A stretch of DNA of 64,000 bases from an archaeon. GTDB lineage: Archaea > Iainarchaeota > Iainarchaeia > Iainarchaeales > CSSED10-239. Where the stretch lies: assembly GCA_041657425.1 (NCBI GenBank), contig JBBABY010000001.1, forward strand, positions 85,510 to 149,509. Reading direction: 5' to 3'. Under the pieces are notes generated by a model. The model searched no databases. It was not told where the DNA came from and was given only the letters and a program-made list of their open reading frames with translations. Of this stretch, positions 1,048-37,327 are shown piece by piece. The translations under genes were made by a program, and so were the position numbers. Every line of letters starts with the position of its first letter. Positions within the stretch are counted from its first letter, which is position 1.

Positions 1048-4000
1048 GTGAATTAAATCTATTAGCAAATAAGGAGATTAAAGAATATTATAATAAACTT
1101 ACAAGCGATATAGATGTAGCTGTTGAAATTGCAAGAACTGCAAGAAAGCAAGGAAAAGACTCACATAACGATATTGAATCTATTCCTGCAAAAGGAATTG
1201 CAGAAAAAACTGAACTACTTATTGGTCCGCCAGGTGTTGCAAAAGTATATAATGAACTTTGGGAAAAGCATCATACTCGATTTCCAGTAATGCTTGAAAT
1301 ATTTAATATGATTCTTGATAAAGAACTTGGAAATATTGAAGACCCTGAAAAAAGATTAGATCAAGCACTTAGAACTGCATTAATTATTGAAACAGAGGGC
1401 GTTGTTGTTTCTCCACTTGATGGACTACCATTAATCAAACTTACAAAGAATGAGGACGGAACAGAATTTATTGATATTTATTATGCGGGACCAATTAGAG
1501 CGGCTGGAGGTAACGCACAAACCTTACCTTTACTCTTAGGAGACCTTGCAAGAAAAAAACTTGGTATCGATAGATTTAAACCAAGTAAAAGAGAAATAGA
1601 AAGAGTGATTGAAGAAGCAATGCTTTATCAATCAGAAGTTGTGGCAAGACAACAAAGAGTAACTGAAGCAGAAGTAAGAGTGATGGTGGAGAATTGTCCT
1701 ATCAGAGTAAATAGTTATGCAGATAACGAAGTTGAGATTGTTGCTAATAGAGACATTCCAGGAATTGACACAAACAAAGTTAGAGGGGCAATGTGCCTTG
1801 TTTTAATTGATGGACTTTATGTTAGAGCACTTAAGATTATGAAGACCAGTAAGAAGATTGGACTTGATTGGTCATGGCTTGAAAAACTTGTTAAGGTTAA
1901 AAAGACCGCAGAAGGATTTGAACTTAAACCCTCAAGTAAATACCTTGAAGGATTGGCTGCTGGTAGACCTGTTTTCTCATATCCTTTTAGAGAAGGAGGG
2001 TTTAGACTTAGGTATGGCAAAGCTAGAAACACGGGGCTTATGGCAAAAGCAATTAATCCTGCAACCATGTATGTACTAGACGAATTTATTGCTGTTGGAA
2101 CACACGGAAGAATTGAAAGACCAGGAAAATCTTTACAATACTTTCCATGCTCAACCATTGACGGGCCAATTGTTAGACTTAAGAACAAAGATGTGATTTC
2201 TCTTGATTATGTTAAAGACGCGAAAAAATACGTAAATGACATTGACAAAATATTATTTGTTGGAGACATGCTTATTGCTGTTGGAGACTTTAGAAAATCA
2301 GGACACCCTTTAATCAAATCAGGATATGTAGAAGAAGAATGGCTTGCAGAAACAAATTATCTTTACAGAACAGAAAAAATAAATAAACACGTTCTTGAGA
2401 TGTGTAAAGGATTTTACCAAAACCCTAATCCTTATACAGCCATTGCCTTAAGCTTAAAATATAATATCCCTTTATTCCCTAAATATATCTTTTACTATGA
2501 TCTTCTTAATCACGAAGAACTAAAAATATTAATTAGACACGTAAGAGCAGCAGATAAACTCTTCTCAAATGAAGACGAAAGTACTTCGCGCGAGTCAAGC
2601 GTTGCCGACTCAGAAGATAAAAAAGAAAAAACAACAATTTTAGAAAATATAAAAGAGATCTTTGAAAAAACAATAGACACTATTGATCTTATTGGATTAA
2701 CTGAAATACTTACAAAGAAAGAAACACAAATTATTGGTATCAAGATTGAATATGATACTGAGATCAAAGCCATACTTGAAAAGATAGGACTTGTGCATAA
2801 ATACTTAGAAGAAGAAAATAAAATCTTGATTGAAAAAGAACAAGCATACCCTTTCCTAAAAACTGTTGGAGCAATGAATGCCATTGACCCTATTGAAGAA
2901 TTTAAAGACGAAATTGAAAACCAAGAAAAAACAACTGTAGAAATATTAAGTCATATTTCTAAAATTGAAATTAGAGACAAATCAGGATTTTGGATTGGGG
3001 CAAGAATGGGTAGGCCAGAAGCTGCTCATGAAAGAGTTGTGGCTGGAAAAGTTAATGTATTGTTTCCTATCGGTAAAGGATATGGTAACTCTAGAGATTT
3101 TATTAAAGCAATTAAGAAAAGAGCAGATGGTGCTAACCACAACGACTTTGGAATTAACGATGTTGAGATTAAATCATTTATGTGTCTTACCTGTAAAAAA
3201 ATAATATTTAATAATTATTGTTTTGATTGTAAGACTGAAGCAAAAGAAATTAGAATCTGCTTAAAATGTAATTCACAAACTTCTGACAAGATTTGTAGTA
3301 AATGTAACTTAGAAACAAAAGTTAAGATTGATCATAAGATTAATATTGATAGACTTATTGAACATGCCGCAAACAACCTAAGAGTAGGAATGCCTGAAAG
3401 CCTGAATGGAGTAAAAGCACTTGTTAGTAGAGATAAAGTTTCTGAACCACTTGAAAAAGGAATCTTAAGAGCCAAGCATAATGTTTCTATCTTTAGAGAC
3501 GGCACTTGTAGATATGAAGCATTAAACGCAACCATCTCACAAGTATCTGCTAAAGAACTTGGAATTACACTTGAAAAATTAAAAGAACTTGGATATAAAA
3601 AAGACTATCTTGATAATGATCTTAAAGACGAAAACCAAAGAGCATCAATCTTTCCTCAAGACATTATTGTTGATGACAACTGCGGAGAATACTTCTTAAG
3701 AGTGTCACAATTTATTGATGATGAACTTGAGAAGTTTTATGAACTTCCAAAGTTTTATAACTCTAAAACAAAAGAAGACCTTATTGGCCAACTTGTTATT
3801 GGTCTTGCCCCACACACGTCTGCTGGAATTGTTGGAAGAATTATTGGTTACTCTAAATCTAAACTTGCGTGGGGACACCCTTATTACATAACTGCAAAAA
3901 GAAGAAACGTTGATGGAGACCAAGACTCAATGTTATTGTTAATGGACTCTATGCTTAATTTCTCTAACAGTTATTTAAGTTCAGGAAGAGGAGGAAGAAT

Positions 4001-4658
4001 GGACGCGCCTATTGCTTTTACTACTGTTCTCTCGCCATTTGAGATAGATGATGAATCACATGATATTGAAACAAACACTGAATATCCATTTGAATTTTAC
4101 CAAGCAAGTAAAACCTTTACTGAAGCAGATAAGGTTCCTGAAATTATTAATGCAGGAAAATTACTTGGAACAGACAAGCAATACGATTGTATAAAATTTA
4201 CACACGACACCAATTGTTTTGATGAAGGCCCTAAGCAAAGTTCTTATATTTCCATCAAGTCAATGCATGACAAAGTACAGAAACAAGCAAAACTTCAAGA
4301 AAGAATCCTTGCAGTAGATAACAAAGATTCTTTAGAAAGACTTCTTCATTATCATTTATTCCCAGACATCATTGGTAACACCAGAGCGTTTGCAAGACAG
4401 AAACTAAGATGCGTTAAATGTAATAAAAAGTTTAGAAGAATTCCACTTTCTGGTGTTTGTGATTGCGGAGGAAAATTAATCTTGACAATCGCACAAGGAT
4501 CCATAAAGAAATATTTGGAAGTTGCAAAAAACTTAGTAATTGATTATCAACTAAACCCACATCTTTTACAAAGACTAAACATAAGTGAAGACGAAATCAA
4601 CAGCCTCTTCTCAGACAAAGAAGCAAGAATGCAGAAGTCGTTGTCTGAATATTTTTAA
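1044..4658 (+). CDS. DNA polymerase II (PolD) large catalytic subunit DP2
   Basis: 1204 aa. Motifs GARMGRPE, LAPHTSAGIVGRIIG and KRRNVDGDQDS (acidic catalytic motif). Several CxxC zinc modules (CLTCKK..CFDCK, CLKCN..CSKCN, CVKCNKKF..CDCGG). Translationally coupled to DP1. Confidence 0.92.
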   Translation: MSELNLLANKEIKEYYNKLTSDIDVAVEIARTARKQGKDSHNDIESIPAKGIAEKTELLIGPPGVAKVYNELWEKHHTRFPVMLEIFNMILDKELGNIEDPEKRLDQALRTALIIETEGVVVSPLDGLPLIKLTKNEDGTEFIDIYYAGPIRAAGGNAQTLPLLLGDLARKKLGIDRFKPSKREIERVIEEAMLYQSEVVARQQRVTEAEVRVMVENCPIRVNSYADNEVEIVANRDIPGIDTNKVRGAMCLVLIDGLYVRALKIMKTSKKIGLDWSWLEKLVKVKKTAEGFELKPSSKYLEGLAAGRPVFSYPFREGGFRLRYGKARNTGLMAKAINPATMYVLDEFIAVGTHGRIERPGKSLQYFPCSTIDGPIVRLKNKDVISLDYVKDAKKYVNDIDKILFVGDMLIAVGDFRKSGHPLIKSGYVEEEWLAETNYLYRTEKINKHVLEMCKGFYQNPNPYTAIALSLKYNIPLFPKYIFYYDLLNHEELKILIRHVRAADKLFSNEDESTSRESSVADSEDKKEKTTILENIKEIFEKTIDTIDLIGLTEILTKKETQIIGIKIEYDTEIKAILEKIGLVHKYLEEENKILIEKEQAYPFLKTVGAMNAIDPIEEFKDEIENQEKTTVEILSHISKIEIRDKSGFWIGARMGRPEAAHERVVAGKVNVLFPIGKGYGNSRDFIKAIKKRADGANHNDFGINDVEIKSFMCLTCKKIIFNNYCFDCKTEAKEIRICLKCNSQTSDKICSKCNLETKVKIDHKINIDRLIEHAANNLRVGMPESLNGVKALVSRDKVSEPLEKGILRAKHNVSIFRDGTCRYEALNATISQVSAKELGITLEKLKELGYKKDYLDNDLKDENQRASIFPQDIIVDDNCGEYFLRVSQFIDDELEKFYELPKFYNSKTKEDLIGQLVIGLAPHTSAGIVGRIIGYSKSKLAWGHPYYITAKRRNVDGDQDSMLLLMDSMLNFSNSYLSSGRGGRMDAPIAFTTVLSPFEIDDESHDIETNTEYPFEFYQASKTFTEADKVPEIINAGKLLGTDKQYDCIKFTHDTNCFDEGPKQSSYISIKSMHDKVQKQAKLQERILAVDNKDSLERLLHYHLFPDIIGNTRAFARQKLRCVKCNKKFRRIPLSGVCDCGGKLILTIAQGSIKKYLEVAKNLVIDYQLNPHLLQRLNISEDEINSLFSDKEARMQKSLSEYF
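4613..4658 (+). repeat. Copy 1 of a 46-bp direct repeat; this is the functional 3' end of polD DP2 (DKEARMQKSLSEYF*)
   Basis: agacaaagaagcaagaatgcagaagtcgttgtctgaatatttttaa matches 5611..5656 at 42 of 46 positions by eye. Confidence 0.9.
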
Positions 4659-4664
4659 AAAAGG

Positions 4665-5525
4665 TTATTTATATTTTGGTTTTCTTTTTTTCTTACTTTT
4701 TAATATTAATCTTTTTTGCTTTTCAGGAATTGTTAAATAATTATCTTTATTTGAAATCTTTCTTCCAAGCCCTTTCTCCACTTCTTTTCTTGCATTGCCT
4801 ACAATTGCACCGCCTTTCTTTGCAACCACTTTGGATTTTAAATAACCTTGTGCATCTTCTTTAACTGTAATTTCCTTAGTTACTTTTTCCCCTAACATTG
4901 AGAAAATCAATTCAAACTCGTCCATATGGTCTCTTAAATTTTCATTATTTAAACCTTTGAATTTCTTATATTCGTTAGGCGTCATATCAAAAGTAGCTTT
5001 TGAAATTTCAGCTGTAAGAATTGAAAACTCTTTTTTTTCCTTTACTCCTCTTTTCTTCCATTCGTCAGTTAGTTCATCCCTAACAGCTATCCCTCTAATT
5101 CTCTTTTCAATCCATTCATCGGAGTAACCTTTAGCTATAAAAAGAGCCTTCATTCTTTTTTGAGCAAGCTCTGGATTTTGTATCTCTTGTATTCTTTCAT
5201 AACCCACTTGAGAAAGCCACAGTTTGAAAGGTTCTGCTTTTGGGGAGGGAATTGATTGAATTAATCTAAATGCGCCTTTAATAGATATACAATTTAAATT
5301 TTGTTTACCACCAACTGTATCTATCAAAAGGGGGGTGGCAATTTGCCCCCACCCTTTATTAAAAGATTCGTCTCTTCTTCTCATATCTTTTAAATATCCT
5401 GATGGATCTTTAGAATCAGTTAATACCTCAACTATATCGGTCGCAACAACCCACCATTCTTCATTAAACCAAGTTCTTCTAATTTTCTTGTTTTCAAAAA
5501 TAACTATTGAATTATTTGTTTCCAT
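4665..5525 (-). CDS. Bro-N / DinD-like (phage antirepressor family) DNA-binding protein
   Basis: 286 aa. The N-terminal Bro-N-like segment (IVIFENKKIRRTWFNEEWWVVATDIVEVL, CISIKGAFRLIQSIPSPKAEPFKLWL) and the following region (GYERIQEIQNPELAQKRM, LTDEWKKRG, NLRDHM) resemble the widespread bacterial Bro-N/DNA-damage-inducible protein D family as I recall it. Convergent with polD; the stop codons are 6 nt apart. Confidence 0.7.
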   Translation of the reverse strand: METNNSIVIFENKKIRRTWFNEEWWVVATDIVEVLTDSKDPSGYLKDMRRRDESFNKGWGQIATPLLIDTVGGKQNLNCISIKGAFRLIQSIPSPKAEPFKLWLSQVGYERIQEIQNPELAQKRMKALFIAKGYSDEWIEKRIRGIAVRDELTDEWKKRGVKEKKEFSILTAEISKATFDMTPNEYKKFKGLNNENLRDHMDEFELIFSMLGEKVTKEITVKEDAQGYLKSKVVAKKGGAIVGNARKEVEKGLGRKISNKDNYLTIPEKQKRLILKSKKKRKPKYK

Positions 5526-33506: not shown

Positions 33507-34166
33507 TTATCTTAACGTATACCTTTTATCCTCTTTTGATAACTCTCTAAATATTGTCGTTGGTAAATTATATTTTTTTATGGTATTCTTATTCACGAAA
33601 TCTTGGACGAACACAAGTTGTCCTTTTGTAGATTCTAACATTTTATTAAAACTATCAAATGTTAACTCTGGATGTGTTGTAACTCTAAGTTCGCATGGGA
33701 TCAATGATTGTTTTAATAATTCTAATGATTTTTTTATATTTTCTATCGGAACTTTTGTATATTTTGCATAATTGTCAAAACTATCCTTTAAGTCCATAGC
33801 AATATAATCTACTAATCTCTCTGCGATTACTTTTTTCAAAATTTCTGGATTTGATCCATTAGTATCTAATTTTACTAAATACCCTTTTGCTTTTATCTCT
33901 TTTATAAAATCTATTAATTCCTGCCCATAGATCGTTGGTTCCCCACCACTTAAAACTACAGCATCAATTAGTCCTTTTCTATTATCCAAGAAATAATAAA
34001 TTTCTTGAATATCTAGTTCTTTTTCGTATAATTCTTTTAATACTAATTGTTTATTGTAACAAAAACCGCAATTGAAATTACATCCTTTAAAAAATATAAT
34101 GCACGCAATTTTATTTGGATAATCAATAGTACTAAATTTCTCAATGGCGCCAATTTTTAATGTCAT
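33507..34166 (-). CDS. nrdG: Anaerobic ribonucleoside-triphosphate reductase activating protein (radical SAM)
   Basis: FFKGCNFNCGFCYN (CxxxCxxC), VVLSGGEPT. 219 aa, immediately downstream of the nrdD parts. Confidence 0.88.
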   Translation of the reverse strand: MTLKIGAIEKFSTIDYPNKIACIIFFKGCNFNCGFCYNKQLVLKELYEKELDIQEIYYFLDNRKGLIDAVVLSGGEPTIYGQELIDFIKEIKAKGYLVKLDTNGSNPEILKKVIAERLVDYIAMDLKDSFDNYAKYTKVPIENIKKSLELLKQSLIPCELRVTTHPELTFDSFNKMLESTKGQLVFVQDFVNKNTIKKYNLPTTIFRELSKEDKRYTLR

Positions 34167-34178
34167 TTTATTATCACA

Positions 34179-34322
34179 TTATTTTTCAGGAACATTAAAC
34201 AATTTTCTATCCTTATATTCTGCTTGCTTTCCGTAATTCCAAGCATCAACTCTTCTAACGTATCCCACAACCCTAGAATATATTTCACATTTTTGTCTTT
34301 TACATTCAGTTTCTTCGCTCAT
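34179..34322 (-). CDS. Stand-alone glycyl-radical domain of class III RNR (47 aa; not in the ORF track)
   Basis: Hand translation gives MSEETECKRQKCEIYSRVVGYVRRVDAWNYGKQAEYKDRKLFNVPEK*. It contains the RVxGY glycyl-radical motif and the WNxGKxxExxxR tail that normally end NrdD. The ATG is 21 nt after the nrdD stop, in a different frame, and is preceded by AAGGGGGT. Confidence 0.75.
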   Translation of the reverse strand: MSEETECKRQKCEIYSRVVGYVRRVDAWNYGKQAEYKDRKLFNVPEK

Positions 34323-34331
34323 TTTATTTAA

Positions 34332-34339
34332 ACCCCCTT
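34332..34339 (-). promoter_or_regulatory. Shine-Dalgarno-like AAGGGGGT, 9 nt upstream of the ATG of the glycyl-radical mini-ORF
   Basis: Read on the minus strand between the nrdD stop (34343..34345) and the ATG at 34322. Confidence 0.45.
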
Positions 34340-34342
34340 GTT

Positions 34343-37327
34343 TTATTCTTTAATATAACCTATTTCTGTATCACATTTTGGACAATACTCGTGCTCTCCA
34401 AATAGATATCCGTGTTTTGGACAAATAGAGAAAGTAGGAGTAAACGTAAAATATGGCAATTTATATTTGTTTGTTATTTTTTGAATTAATGATTTGATTG
34501 CTTCTTTAGATGGTTTCTTTTCTCCAATAAAGAAATGTATTACTGTGCCGCCGGTATATTTACATTGTAAATCATCTTGTAATTCTAATATTTCAAAAAT
34601 ATCAGATGTATAATTTACAGGTATTTGAGTTGAATTTGTATAATATGGTTGTGCTCCATCATTTTGAAAATTATTTTCATTTGCAACAATAATAGAAGGA
34701 AATTTCTTTTTATCATGGCTTGCAAATCTATAAGTTGTGCCTTCTCCAGGTGTTGCTTCTAAATTATATAAAGCCCCTGTATCTTCTTGATATTTCTGTA
34801 TCTTCTCTCTCATAAAATCCATAACTTTATTTGCAAATGCCGTTCCTTTAGGTGTGTAAATTTCCTCTCCTAAAAAATTAAGACAAGACTCATTCATTCC
34901 AAGTAAACCAATTGTCGAAAAATGATTCTTCCAATAACTTCCAAATCTATCTTTAATTGTTTTAAGATTATATTTAGAATAAGGGTATAATCCATCATCC
35001 GTATATTTTTCTACAATCTTTCTTTTGATATCTAATGATTTTCTTGAAAGATCCATTAAATGTCCTAAAGTTTCAAAATATTCTTCTTCAGTTTTTGTAA
35101 GATAACCTATTTGAGCAAGATTAATTGTTACAACACCAATTGAACCAGTCAAAGGATTTGATCCAAATAAACCTCCTCCTCTTTTCTGTAATTCTCTATT
35201 ATCAAGCCTCAATCTACAACACATGCTTCTGGCATCTTCTGGTTTCATATCAGAATTAACAAAATTTGCAAAGTAAGGCGTTCCATATTTTATTGTTAAA
35301 TCAATTAATTTATCTGCTAATGGACTATTCCATTCAAATTCTTTAGTAACATTTATGGTAGGTATTGGGAAAGAAAACATATTACCACCAGCATCTCCTT
35401 CTAACAACACATCGAGAAGTGCCATATTGAATATATCCATTTCTTTTGTAAATTCTCCATAGGTTTTATCTTGAGGCTTACCTCCAATTATTACTGGTTG
35501 ATCTTTAAGGGTTGAAGGAATTGTTAGATCAAGAGTAATATTACTAAATGGAGTATTTCCTGTGATAAATACTTTCCCATTTCTTTTAGCAATTACGGTT
35601 TCGTTATCTGTATTTGGACACCAAATTATTCCATTATAATCTACTTCTTTTATTTCTGTTATAGTTGTATCTTTGTGCTGTATTATTCTTAGAACAAATA
35701 TTGGTTTTTTACCTATTGTTGGTTTTCTTACTAAAGTTGTAAATCCATATCCTGCTAAGACGCACATATGCTGTAAACCATAGAGAATATCCACAGAAGT
35801 TGTAGAAATTTTAAATTCGTCGGTTCCATCTCCTTTATTGTATGTTTCTAAAAATAATCTTGCTTGTTTTTCATTAGCAGAAAATAATTCTACAGGTATA
35901 AATTTAATATTACTTTCGTCACTAAACCAAGAATGAACTAATCTCGAACTTGCTGCGTTTAACTTCAGATGATTAACAGGCAAACCTAAACCAACGTGCT
36001 TACTTTCAGAAAATTTTAATTTAAAATAATTCAATAGATCTTTTATTTCTTTATATTCTTTATTATTTTTTATTTCTGATTGATATAACTTTATATTCCT
36101 TGAATTTCTGTGCTTATGATAAGGTTGCTCTGAACTGCCTTCTGCAATAACCCACGCAACTAATTTAATTTTCTCTTCGTTCCAACTTATGCCTTTATTA
36201 TTGTTATTTCCTGCAATTGGAATAATGATTGGAGACTTCATTTTTTTTATATTCTCAACTTCTTCTAAAATGAATTTTTCTCCAACATTAAATAATTTTC
36301 TAACCATTCTATGTTTTGGAGAAATTAATTGATCCTGTATTCTATTTCTTACATTATACATTTTTCCTGAATATTCTCTTACAAATAGTTTCTTAATTGG
36401 CAAATCTTCTAGTTTTCCTGTTTTTATATTAAATGTTTTAATTATATTTCCAACTTTTAAATCCTGATGAGTTTGCCAACCATCTTCTGTTAATATTTCA
36501 GTATCTTCTGACATACATTGATAACCAACTCTAGTTGGTACATTCATATTGTAAATAAATTTTTCCAAATCTGCTTTTACTCTTGCATAATCTAGTTTAT
36601 CATAATAGATAAAGGGTGCAAGAAGTGTATCGAAATTACTAAATGCTTGAGCACCTGCAGCCTCTCCTTGTAAAGTATAAATAAAATTAACAATCTGACC
36701 TAGTGCTGTATCAAAATGTTTAGCTGGAGAGCATACAATTTTTCCTGGGCCTCCTCTAAAACCATTTTGTAAAACTGCCTGAAGATCCCAACCCACACAA
36801 TATGGACCAAGAGTACAAAGATCATGTATATGTAATTGTCTTTTTTCATGCGCCTCTTTTATTTCTGTAGGATATATTTTCTTTACCCAATAATCTGATA
36901 TTACTTTTGTAGATAGATAATTATTTAGACCTTGTAAAGAATAATCCATATTACTATTCTCTTTAACCTGCCAATCTGAAATATTAATATAACTTTCAAC
37001 CGCATTCGTACTATCTATTAAACTTGATATTTGTCTTATATCATCGTGTTGCTTTCTATAAATTACATAAGCTTTAACTAATTTTGTTAATCCTTCTTTT
37101 ATTAAAACATCTTCAACTATATCTTGAATATTATTTACGGTTGGCAATTTGTTATTTTCAAAATATTCTTGATTAATTGCATTATCTATTTTCTTAGTTA
37201 AATAATCTGCTAAATCTATATCTGGATTATCAATTGCATCTAATGCCTTTAAAATCGCCAATTTAATTTTATATATATTATAATCAATCTTCTCTTCTTT
37301 TCTATTAATTATTTGTTTTGCGTGCAT
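34343..37327 (-). CDS. nrdD: Anaerobic (class III) ribonucleoside-triphosphate reductase large fragment; contains an intein and lacks the glycyl-radical tail
   Basis: ATP-cone N-terminus. NrdD core motifs ARSMCCRLRLD, GGGLFGSNPLTGSIGVVTINL, and the Zn site CPKHGY..CPKCD at the end. The protein stops after TEIGYIKE, before any RVxGY motif. Confidence 0.9.
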   Translation of the reverse strand: MHAKQIINRKEEKIDYNIYKIKLAILKALDAIDNPDIDLADYLTKKIDNAINQEYFENNKLPTVNNIQDIVEDVLIKEGLTKLVKAYVIYRKQHDDIRQISSLIDSTNAVESYINISDWQVKENSNMDYSLQGLNNYLSTKVISDYWVKKIYPTEIKEAHEKRQLHIHDLCTLGPYCVGWDLQAVLQNGFRGGPGKIVCSPAKHFDTALGQIVNFIYTLQGEAAGAQAFSNFDTLLAPFIYYDKLDYARVKADLEKFIYNMNVPTRVGYQCMSEDTEILTEDGWQTHQDLKVGNIIKTFNIKTGKLEDLPIKKLFVREYSGKMYNVRNRIQDQLISPKHRMVRKLFNVGEKFILEEVENIKKMKSPIIIPIAGNNNNKGISWNEEKIKLVAWVIAEGSSEQPYHKHRNSRNIKLYQSEIKNNKEYKEIKDLLNYFKLKFSESKHVGLGLPVNHLKLNAASSRLVHSWFSDESNIKFIPVELFSANEKQARLFLETYNKGDGTDEFKISTTSVDILYGLQHMCVLAGYGFTTLVRKPTIGKKPIFVLRIIQHKDTTITEIKEVDYNGIIWCPNTDNETVIAKRNGKVFITGNTPFSNITLDLTIPSTLKDQPVIIGGKPQDKTYGEFTKEMDIFNMALLDVLLEGDAGGNMFSFPIPTINVTKEFEWNSPLADKLIDLTIKYGTPYFANFVNSDMKPEDARSMCCRLRLDNRELQKRGGGLFGSNPLTGSIGVVTINLAQIGYLTKTEEEYFETLGHLMDLSRKSLDIKRKIVEKYTDDGLYPYSKYNLKTIKDRFGSYWKNHFSTIGLLGMNESCLNFLGEEIYTPKGTAFANKVMDFMREKIQKYQEDTGALYNLEATPGEGTTYRFASHDKKKFPSIIVANENNFQNDGAQPYYTNSTQIPVNYTSDIFEILELQDDLQCKYTGGTVIHFFIGEKKPSKEAIKSLIQKITNKYKLPYFTFTPTFSICPKHGYLFGEHEYCPKCDTEIGYIKE
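35555..36517 (-). mobile_element. Intein (321 aa) with LAGLIDADG homing-endonuclease domain inside nrdD
   Basis: Extein junctions are NVPTRVGYQ / C...FITGN / TPFSNITLD. N-terminal Cys (block A CMSEDTEILTEDG), block B-like ISPKHRM, two LAGLIDADG motifs (KLVAWVIAEGSS, LFLETYNKGDGT), C-terminal Asn followed by Thr+1. Codon positions were checked on the DNA (tgt at 36515..36517, aat at 35555..35557 on the complement). Confidence 0.85.

Follow-up and report, generated by a model that had tools for sequence, protein, structure and literature searches.

A putative two-chain class III ribonucleotide reductase with its radical glycine encoded by a separate 47-codon gene

Introduction

Does the radical glycine of a glycyl-radical enzyme have to reside on the same chain as the catalytic barrel? 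Such enzymes are generally described with the radical glycine on the catalytic chain, and to our knowledge GrcA, the repair part of pyruvate formate-lyase (PFL), is the one textbook exception. The question is raised by a locus in a 64,000-nucleotide (nt) stretch of DNA from an Iainarchaeota archaeon (GenBank assembly GCA_041657425.1, contig JBBABY010000001.1, positions 85,510 to 149,509; here called the window), where the class III ribonucleotide reductase (RNR) gene nrdD stops short of its glycyl-radical motif and a separate open reading frame (ORF) of 47 codons supplies it, directly before nrdG, the gene of the radical-SAM (S-adenosylmethionine) activase. A first, sequence-only reading had proposed either a functional two-piece enzyme or a frameshift or assembly lesion. 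Recurrence of the layout, cistron-like junctions and purifying selection on the small gene argue for the former, and we consider it probable (roughly 0.8) that the locus encodes a naturally split class III RNR working as a genuine two-chain enzyme.

Results

Two ORFs Together Make Up One NrdD

On the minus strand the window carries, in this order, nrdD-large, nrdD-small, nrdG and a class II-like RNR gene (Table 1). nrdD-large matches Pfam NRDD (558.6 bits, cut-off 26.2), NCBIfam NF006126 (954.8 bits, cut-off 548) and TIGR02487 (481.7 bits, cut-off 326), and since the first two matches stop at profile positions 529 of 562 and 651 of 684, the chain is without the last ~33 positions, the RVxGY region, just as the sequence-only reading had placed its end after the zinc site and before the radical motif. 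Its C terminus reads YCPKCDTEIGYIKE before the stop codon, also given as FSICPKHGYLFGEHEYCPKCDTEIGYIKE, just past the zinc ribbon. The product of the small ORF, MSEETECKRQKCEIYSRVVGYVRRVDAWNYGKQAEYKDRKLFNVPEK, holds the glycyl-radical loop RVVGY and the tail WNYGKQAE (consensus WNxGKQAE), and matches positions 526-562 of the 562 of Pfam NRDD (E = 2.2e-10), exactly the part that the large chain is without, which agrees with its first assignment as the NrdD C terminus. Together the two chains cover the NrdD profile completely, overlapping by 4-6 positions. The small ORF gave no match to Pfam Gly_radical (PF01228), the model of the PFL C terminus, and only NRDD/NrdD-family models recognized it; a phmmer search of the 47-amino-acid (aa) peptide against PDB sequences returned nothing at E<=1 because the query is too short. 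The small ORF had been taken for unannotated, but GenBank already holds proteins identical to both chains (MFA5745354.1 for the small and MFA5745355.1 for the large), from a metagenome-assembled genome (MAG) labelled "archaeon".

Table 1. Positions of the features of the split nrdD locus and of two further ORFs in the window
Feature	Position	Strand	Remarks
nrdD-large, class III RNR catalytic chain	34343..37327	-	994 aa precursor; Pfam NRDD, NF006126
ATP-cone, aa 5-95 of nrdD-large	37043..37315	-	Pfam PF03477, E 3e-13
Intein-like insertion, 321 aa, aa 271-591 of nrdD-large	35555..36517	-	Clean insertion relative to P0083
Finger-loop Cys-Cys, SMCCRLRLD	35216..35221	-	C382/C383 invariant in the 95-sequence alignment A2
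Zinc-ribbon ligand motif C-P-K-H...C-P-K-C, end of nrdD-large	34373..34423	-	Aligns with C..H..CxxC of T. maritima NrdD
DTEIGY tail of nrdD-large	34355..34372	-	DxEIGY motif after the zinc ribbon
nrdD-large stop codon TAA	34343..34345	-	
Intercistronic spacer, 20 nt, with Shine-Dalgarno-like AAGGGGGT	34323..34342 (Shine-Dalgarno-like motif 34332..34339)	-	Direct sequence reading
nrdD-small, 47-aa glycyl-radical subunit	34179..34322	-	Own ATG; Pfam NRDD, end of profile
C12 codon of nrdD-small	34287..34289		8 residues upstream of the radical Gly
Radical Gly20 codon of nrdD-small	34263..34265	-	RVVGY
nrdD-small stop codon TAA	34179..34181	-	
nrdG, radical-SAM activase	33507..34166	-	TIGR02495, Pfam Radical_SAM, Fer4_12
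Divergent class II-like (NrdJ-like) RNR, 679 aa	31448..33487	-	Directly after nrdG
ORF of 1175 aa	48111..51638	-	No Pfam match at E<=1e-5

The large chain, which would be 673 aa long should protein splicing remove an intein-like insert of 321 aa, retains the other parts of a class III RNR. In an alignment of 95 homologue sequences (A2), its NxN flap is kept as KENSNM, with E123 and N126 invariant and N124 nearly so, and the Cys pair of the finger loop, invariant as well, is the presumed thiyl-radical site by homology to NrdD structures. The zinc ribbon of T. maritima NrdD, with ligands C, H, C and C, lies between the last barrel strand and the glycyl-radical loop (PMC4493059). The CPKH...CPKC motif of the window aligns with this zinc motif, with C648, C661 and C664 invariant and H651 nearly invariant in A2, so that the whole zinc site resides on the large chain. 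The small chain consists only of the Gly hairpin and the C-terminal tail. The sequence-only reading had assigned the glycyl-radical domain as a whole to the separate gene, which holds for the Gly loop and the tail, but the zinc-ribbon half of the domain stays on the large chain. C12 of the small chain is kept in most split and contiguous forms, and we considered whether this Cys (in KC-EIYSR) could be the fourth ligand of an inter-chain zinc site; all four ligand equivalents are on the large chain, and such a tether is also disfavored by the replacement of C12 with T, A, M or P in some small chains.

The small gene is under strong purifying selection. Among its closest archaeal relatives, the core of the gene shows synonymous differences (pS) of 0.57-0.96, near saturation, with nonsynonymous differences (pN) of 0.04-0.09 and dN/dS of 0.02-0.09. 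In an alignment of 35 small-chain homologues, S16, R17, V19, G20, G31, K32, E35 and R39 are invariant, and the short N-terminal leader is variable. With the 47-aa peptide as query we found 82 stand-alone proteins, all of 37-83 aa, and an exhaustive HMMER search of 1.84 billion cluster representatives gave 2273 matches at E<=1e-3, the best 150 of which are all 48-162 aa long, with a Met start in 138 of the 147 proteins examined among them.

The Split Recurs in Archaea and Bacteria

Whether the split recurs in related genomes, a question that the sequence-only reading had raised, was addressed in a species survey with one genome per GTDB species (80 loci). At least 44 of the 80 species-level genomes carry an adjacent large/small pair, in which the Gly motif lies in a short ORF directly after a large nrdD ending at the zinc ribbon, and ~22 are contiguous. 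The archaeal carriers include Woesearchaeota, Pacearchaeota, Nanoarchaeota, Micrarchaeota, Iainarchaeota and Thermoplasmatota; those in Patescibacteria include Dojkabacteria/WS6, Saccharibacteria, Falkowbacteria, Parcubacteria and Uhrbacteria; and other bacterial carriers include Bipolaricaulota, Halanaerobiales and one Calditerrivibrio MAG. A Falkowbacteria genome, for example, has nrdR, nrdD (685 aa), a 117-nt gap, a 51-aa ORF and nrdG in succession. Archaeal contigs from many samples have the order nrdD, small gene, nrdG and class II-like RNR gene, and one 49-aa homologue, P0018, has entries in 120 blocks of the sequence collection.

The same picture was obtained from the large chain. Four large chains without the Gly motif, chosen blind to the small gene, are in all four cases followed by an ORF of 46-89 aa matching Pfam NRDD and then by a radical-SAM gene. 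Of the 120 homologues that best match the fused sequence, 43 are without the Gly loop and 77 are contiguous; all 21 homologues with at least 70% identity are without the loop and end at the same place as nrdD-large, and the contiguous family members are 57-61% identical to the window enzyme.

These data bear on the proposal that an indel from sequencing or assembly produced the split, or that nrdD is a recent pseudogene. The class II-like RNR gene adjoining nrdG makes nrdD dispensable in principle, and its product could be working in place of NrdD. Against this, the identical arrangement occurs in independent assemblies and samples and at least 44 species-level genomes have the layout in common; the split is kept where synonymous sites are near saturation and the peptide is almost unchanged; the large chain, the small chain and nrdG are all intact and conserved; and a one-base correction would not give a canonical junction. 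We therefore regard an artifact or a decaying gene as the least credible of the explanations considered here.

The Two Genes Behave as Separate Cistrons

In the window, the small ORF lies in the -1 frame relative to nrdD, behind a Shine-Dalgarno (SD)-like motif, AAGGGGGT, whose G-run stops 10 nt upstream of the ATG. Both the motif and the change of frame had been noted correctly at first, with the spacer given as 21 nt, one more than its actual length, and the distance of 12 nt from the end of nrdD-small to the start of nrdG was confirmed. Read back from its ATG, the frame of the small ORF stays open for 9 codons, up to a TAA two codons before the nrdD stop, giving a two-codon overlap with nrdD. 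A programmed -1 frameshift, stop-codon read-through or bypass might fuse the two ORFs into a one-chain NrdD with a slightly longer linker, and long-linker contiguous relatives show that a fused product would be viable. However, the shift region in the window amounts to just these two codons, in which no slippery heptamer was found.

Junctions were compared across 54 split loci (including the window, a few redundant contigs, and L047 and L085, which are not large/small pairs). The large and small genes fall into all three relative frames (23, 16 and 15 loci, the last being the roughly one quarter in which both ORFs share a frame, as recoding by read-through would have it), the large genes end in TAA (32), TGA (14) or TAG (8), and the gaps range from -104 to +222 nt with a median of 18. 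Small genes start with ATG in 51 of the 54 loci, and an SD-like motif of at least 4 nt lies upstream of 37. We found no ORF inside the large-small gaps of relatives (up to 222 nt) and no mobile element in the 20-nt spacer of the window. The use of all frames and all stops and the wide range of gaps mark ordinary neighboring cistrons rather than a conserved recoding signal, since no single mechanism could be conserved across three frames, three stops, overlaps and gaps of up to 222 nt. Moreover, nrdG lies between the large and small genes in Halanaerobiales, and around some small genes a stretch of 5 kb contains no nrdD. Together with the own ATG of nearly every small ORF and the SD of most, these observations make recoding very unlikely.

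Some loci depart from the common layout. In the Halanaerobiales/Bacillota MAGs L063, L069 and L079, the order is nrdD-large, nrdG and a 51-aa glycyl-radical gene, a single in-frame stop parts the nrdG ORF from the small gene, and the large chain of L079 has an extra insertion of ~180 aa. In L075 (2750..5120), the large chain apparently has a second break immediately ahead of the zinc ribbon, in addition to a separate small gene; the tblastn pieces, 2750-4657 and 4641-4763, lie in different frames, which would fit either another split or an error in the sequence.

The Break Lies in a Variable Linker

Contiguous relatives (L016, L027, L030, L057, P0105, P0107, P0118 and P0201) carry CPxCDxEIGY and KRxKCEVYSRVVGY in one chain with a variable linker between them, as in the junctions of L016, CPTCDKENNYKEGDAESALKRTKCEVYSRVVGY, and L030, CPICDEEIGLKKSAKAKSLERKRTRCEVYSRVVGY. 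The break is thus inside a variable linker, in a subclade with DxEIGY after the ribbon, and the resemblance of the two KC...EI segments is ancestral rather than a scar. A partial duplication had been proposed as the origin of the split from this resemblance, which both motifs in one contiguous chain contradict; at the DNA level there is just a 9-nt exact match, AAAATGTGA, and its score was reached by 1298 of 2000 shuffles (65%). The DxEIGY motif after the ribbon occurs in the split and the long-linker contiguous forms and is absent from the short-linker contiguous forms.

In a neighbor-joining tree of the last 300 barrel residues, split and contiguous forms are interleaved. The split L026 and the contiguous L030 are 86% identical over 673 aa, and the contiguous L016 is 79-80% identical to the split L031 and L052. 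The junction of L026 is in frame and reads KTK-TAA-GGAGG-AATTGAC-ATG, that is, a stop, an SD, 7 nt and a start inside the linker. Such pairs and the interleaving indicate fission, fusion or both, repeated and recent, and run counter to a single origin of the split. Repeated gain or loss of the break would also mean that one-chain and two-chain enzymes are functionally interchangeable, and hence that the covalent link is dispensable.

A Predicted Model of the Proposed Two-Chain Enzyme

The spliced large chain and the small chain were modeled with AlphaFold2 (AF2) as one chain, using 95 homologues. The fused model has a mean predicted local distance difference test score (pLDDT) of 87.1 and a predicted template modeling score (pTM) of 0.80, with a pLDDT of 71 for the junction block (residues 671-680). 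In this model the small chain adopts the canonical hairpin (E686-691/E694-697) with Gly693 at its tip at a pLDDT of 84-91, followed by a tail helix (703-711). The top PDB matches of the model are all class III RNRs, those of P. copri, S. thermophilus, T. maritima and T4. In P. copri NrdD, cryo-electron microscopy and hydrogen-deuterium exchange revealed a highly mobile glycyl-radical domain whose loop is buried and whose tail crosses the surface to the NxN flap (PMC11226230).

We propose that the large chain would provide the ATP-cone, the NxN flap, the barrel with its Cys finger loop and the zinc ribbon, and the 47-aa chain the buried Gly hairpin (RVVGY, with the radical on the glycine) and a C-terminal tail running on the surface. 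nrdD-large, nrdD-small and nrdG follow one another in the same orientation, as the genes of one operon would, and translation of the small chain would begin from an SD and an ATG of its own. The peptide would dock non-covalently, inserting its hairpin into the barrel to face the finger loop and laying its tail on the surface; NrdG would then take the H atom from Gly20 to leave a stable radical, and catalysis would presumably proceed as in one-chain NrdD.

Other Features of the Locus and Its Relatives

The insert in nrdD-large sits at a conserved barrel site, VGYQ|C...GN|TPFSN. Its first residue is Cys, and it ends in GN followed by Thr, with Gly instead of His before the final Asn. P0083 (676 aa) has no insert and is 88-91% identical to nrdD-large across both flanks, and because the insertion relative to P0083 is clean, the insert is polymorphic among close relatives (675-707 versus 992-1000 aa). 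A Pfam scan of the insert gave no match, and its sole NCBIfam signal is a weak, sub-threshold one to intein_Nterm (E = 0.0066). The C-terminal extein matched NrdD structures in a phmmer search against PDB sequences.

The nrdG product scores 179.6 bits against TIGR02495, NrdG2 (cut-off 131.15), in addition to its two Pfam matches. The NrdJ-like RNR downstream has an NCBIfam score of 208.8, far under the cut-off of 961. The order nrdD-large, small gene, nrdG and nrdJ-like gene is retained in the archaeal contigs L001-L004, where an ATP-cone is also reported. PolD DP2 and CDC48 are encoded in the window as well, which is archaeal chromosomal DNA; no further glycyl-radical enzyme was found among the other large ORFs scanned in it, and an Rfam scan of the window found tRNAs only.

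Longer stand-alone NrdD-type glycyl-radical proteins (~85-110 aa) occur in L085, in L025, L047, L059, L065 and L070 (Desulfobacterales/Thermodesulfobacteriota), in L062 (Nealsonbacteria) and in L056 (Lentisphaerae), each apart from L085 around 4700..5110 of its locus, and all except that of L056 have a CxxC...CxxC ribbon of their own. In L085 the protein (~3220..3480; match of the window small chain 3274..3384) is flanked by NrdG and by a complete NrdD of the one-chain type; for the others, neither of these two is encoded within 5 kb.

Discussion

The anatomy of the genes, the homology of every part to NrdD, the recurrence of the pair, the behavior of the small gene as an independent cistron and the selection on it favor a two-chain enzyme that, as proposed above, would assemble non-covalently, be activated by NrdG on its small chain and be enzymatically active. 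Several points weigh against this interpretation. The AF2 model stems from an artificial fusion with an alignment that includes contiguous homologues, so that it is compatible with docking and does not imply binding of a free peptide. A free 47-aa peptide with an exposed radical would be unstable, and activation must therefore be coupled to docking somehow. At same-frame loci where a single stop lies between the ORFs, some read-through is formally possible. The number of fission and fusion events is uncertain, the neighbor-joining tree being rough. Finally, all members seen here come from MAGs.

If the enzyme does work in two pieces, why is it split? Oxygen destroys a glycyl-radical enzyme by chain cleavage at the radical glycine. 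One possibility, which refines rather than excludes a functional two-chain enzyme and which we hold only tentatively, is that the split was selected because the O2-damaged peptide can be replaced as a radical cartridge: a cheap 47-aa piece would be swapped instead of remaking a large chain of 673-994 aa, amounting to a built-in repair of the GrcA/YfiD type. The strong SD of the small gene and its place directly before the activase gene would suit such a role, as would its recurrence across many lineages and the occurrence of stand-alone NrdD-type glycyl-radical proteins in spare-part-like settings (L085, and unlinked orphans in Desulfobacterales and elsewhere). Function in trans has a reported precedent in GrcA (PMC8683613). 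However, the alternation of split and contiguous forms at 79-86% identity is at least as compatible with near-neutral fission and fusion, most carriers are symbionts with small genomes and a strictly anaerobic life, and the peptide of the window is the only radical site of its enzyme, not a spare. A GrcA-like role as a replaceable subunit is by analogy plausible for the window peptide, and the split may be near-neutral or may serve as a renewable radical cartridge.

On a broader and similarly speculative view, which we would not favor at present, NrdD-type autonomous glycyl-radical peptides may form a large unrecognized family that makes the radical cofactor of class III RNR exchangeable, the peptide of the split enzymes being a consumable that is recharged by NrdG and replaced after O2 damage, and the longer zinc-ribbon forms being GrcA-like spares for one-chain NrdDs. 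By analogy these longer forms do resemble spare parts of the GrcA kind that would serve class III RNR, and we found no description of such a role.

A sole radical site on a separate 47-residue peptide would make the covalent link between barrel and Gly loop dispensable, in a layout that is conserved across DPANN archaea, candidate phyla radiation (CPR) bacteria and other phyla. For annotation, it suggests that large chains without the Gly motif should not be called pseudogenes and that mini-ORFs should not be dropped; surveys of RNRs and the reconstruction of metabolism from CPR and DPANN genomes hinge on such annotation. It has long been asked how the activase draws out the buried Gly loop and recharges it, and a natural two-piece enzyme would let loop and barrel be handled, labeled and titrated separately. 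For physiology, it leads to a testable idea, namely that organisms exposed to transient oxygen might renew the radical cofactor with which they make DNA precursors. Were the peptide indeed a replaceable cartridge, the spare-part principle of repair would extend from PFL to DNA-precursor synthesis, and the split enzymes would offer a natural two-piece system for studying activase access to the buried glycine.

Among the closest known systems is the one-chain NrdD/NrdG of the T. maritima type (NF006126/PRK08270; 4COI/4U3E, 8P23, 1HK8), which has the same ATP-cone, barrel and Cys finger loop, the same C..H..CxxC ribbon, RVVGY loop and WNxGKQAE tail, and an adjacent radical-SAM activase. In the window, by contrast, the chain breaks off after the zinc ribbon and ahead of the Gly loop, and the radical Gly is on a separate 47-aa product with its own start. 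In the searchable full-text literature, with subscription-only literature and RNRdb notes outside it, no cellular split class III RNR was found to be described; the only parallels found were a split class II RNR, the class I RNR of phage Aeh1 and phage nrdD genes fragmented by mobile elements. The putative two-chain form of class III RNR, with its radical subunit of 47 aa and its wide occurrence in uncultured archaea and bacteria, thus provisionally appears to be undescribed.

GrcA is a protein of ~127 aa homologous to the PFL C terminus (Pfam Gly_radical) and serves as a spare for a parent enzyme with a radical glycine of its own. The window peptide resembles GrcA/YfiD as a small stand-alone radical-Gly protein, presumably activated by the parent activase and presumed to act in trans with a large barrel, as GrcA reportedly does on PFL (PMC8683613). 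It differs in being homologous to NrdD, in its length of 47 aa without a fold-stabilizing extra domain, and in being the sole radical site of its enzyme; the longer stand-alone forms with a zinc ribbon in L085 and Desulfobacterales are the closer analogues of GrcA.

In the split class II NrdJa/NrdJb of Pseudomonas aeruginosa, an RNR is likewise encoded by two consecutive ORFs, with a C-terminal module on the second chain and non-covalent assembly (PMC4520616). It belongs to another RNR class, however: its radical comes from adenosylcobalamin (PMC4520616), and NrdJb is large, with a zinc finger and a redox Cys pair and no radical site. In Aeromonas phage Aeh1, the nrdA-a and nrdA-b pieces form an active enzyme without splicing (PMC3045599). 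In other phages, introns, inteins or homing endonucleases interrupt nrdD (PMC3653736; for Jug phages, PMC12880540), and in Jug phages a terminal 91-aa nrdD fragment without evidence of splicing (PMC12880540) may be a parallel to the split described here. Those fragmented RNRs are phage-specific, and they were caused by, and still contain, mobile elements, whereas the split class III RNR has no mobile element at its junction, is broken at one defined structural position and occurs in cellular lineages of two domains.

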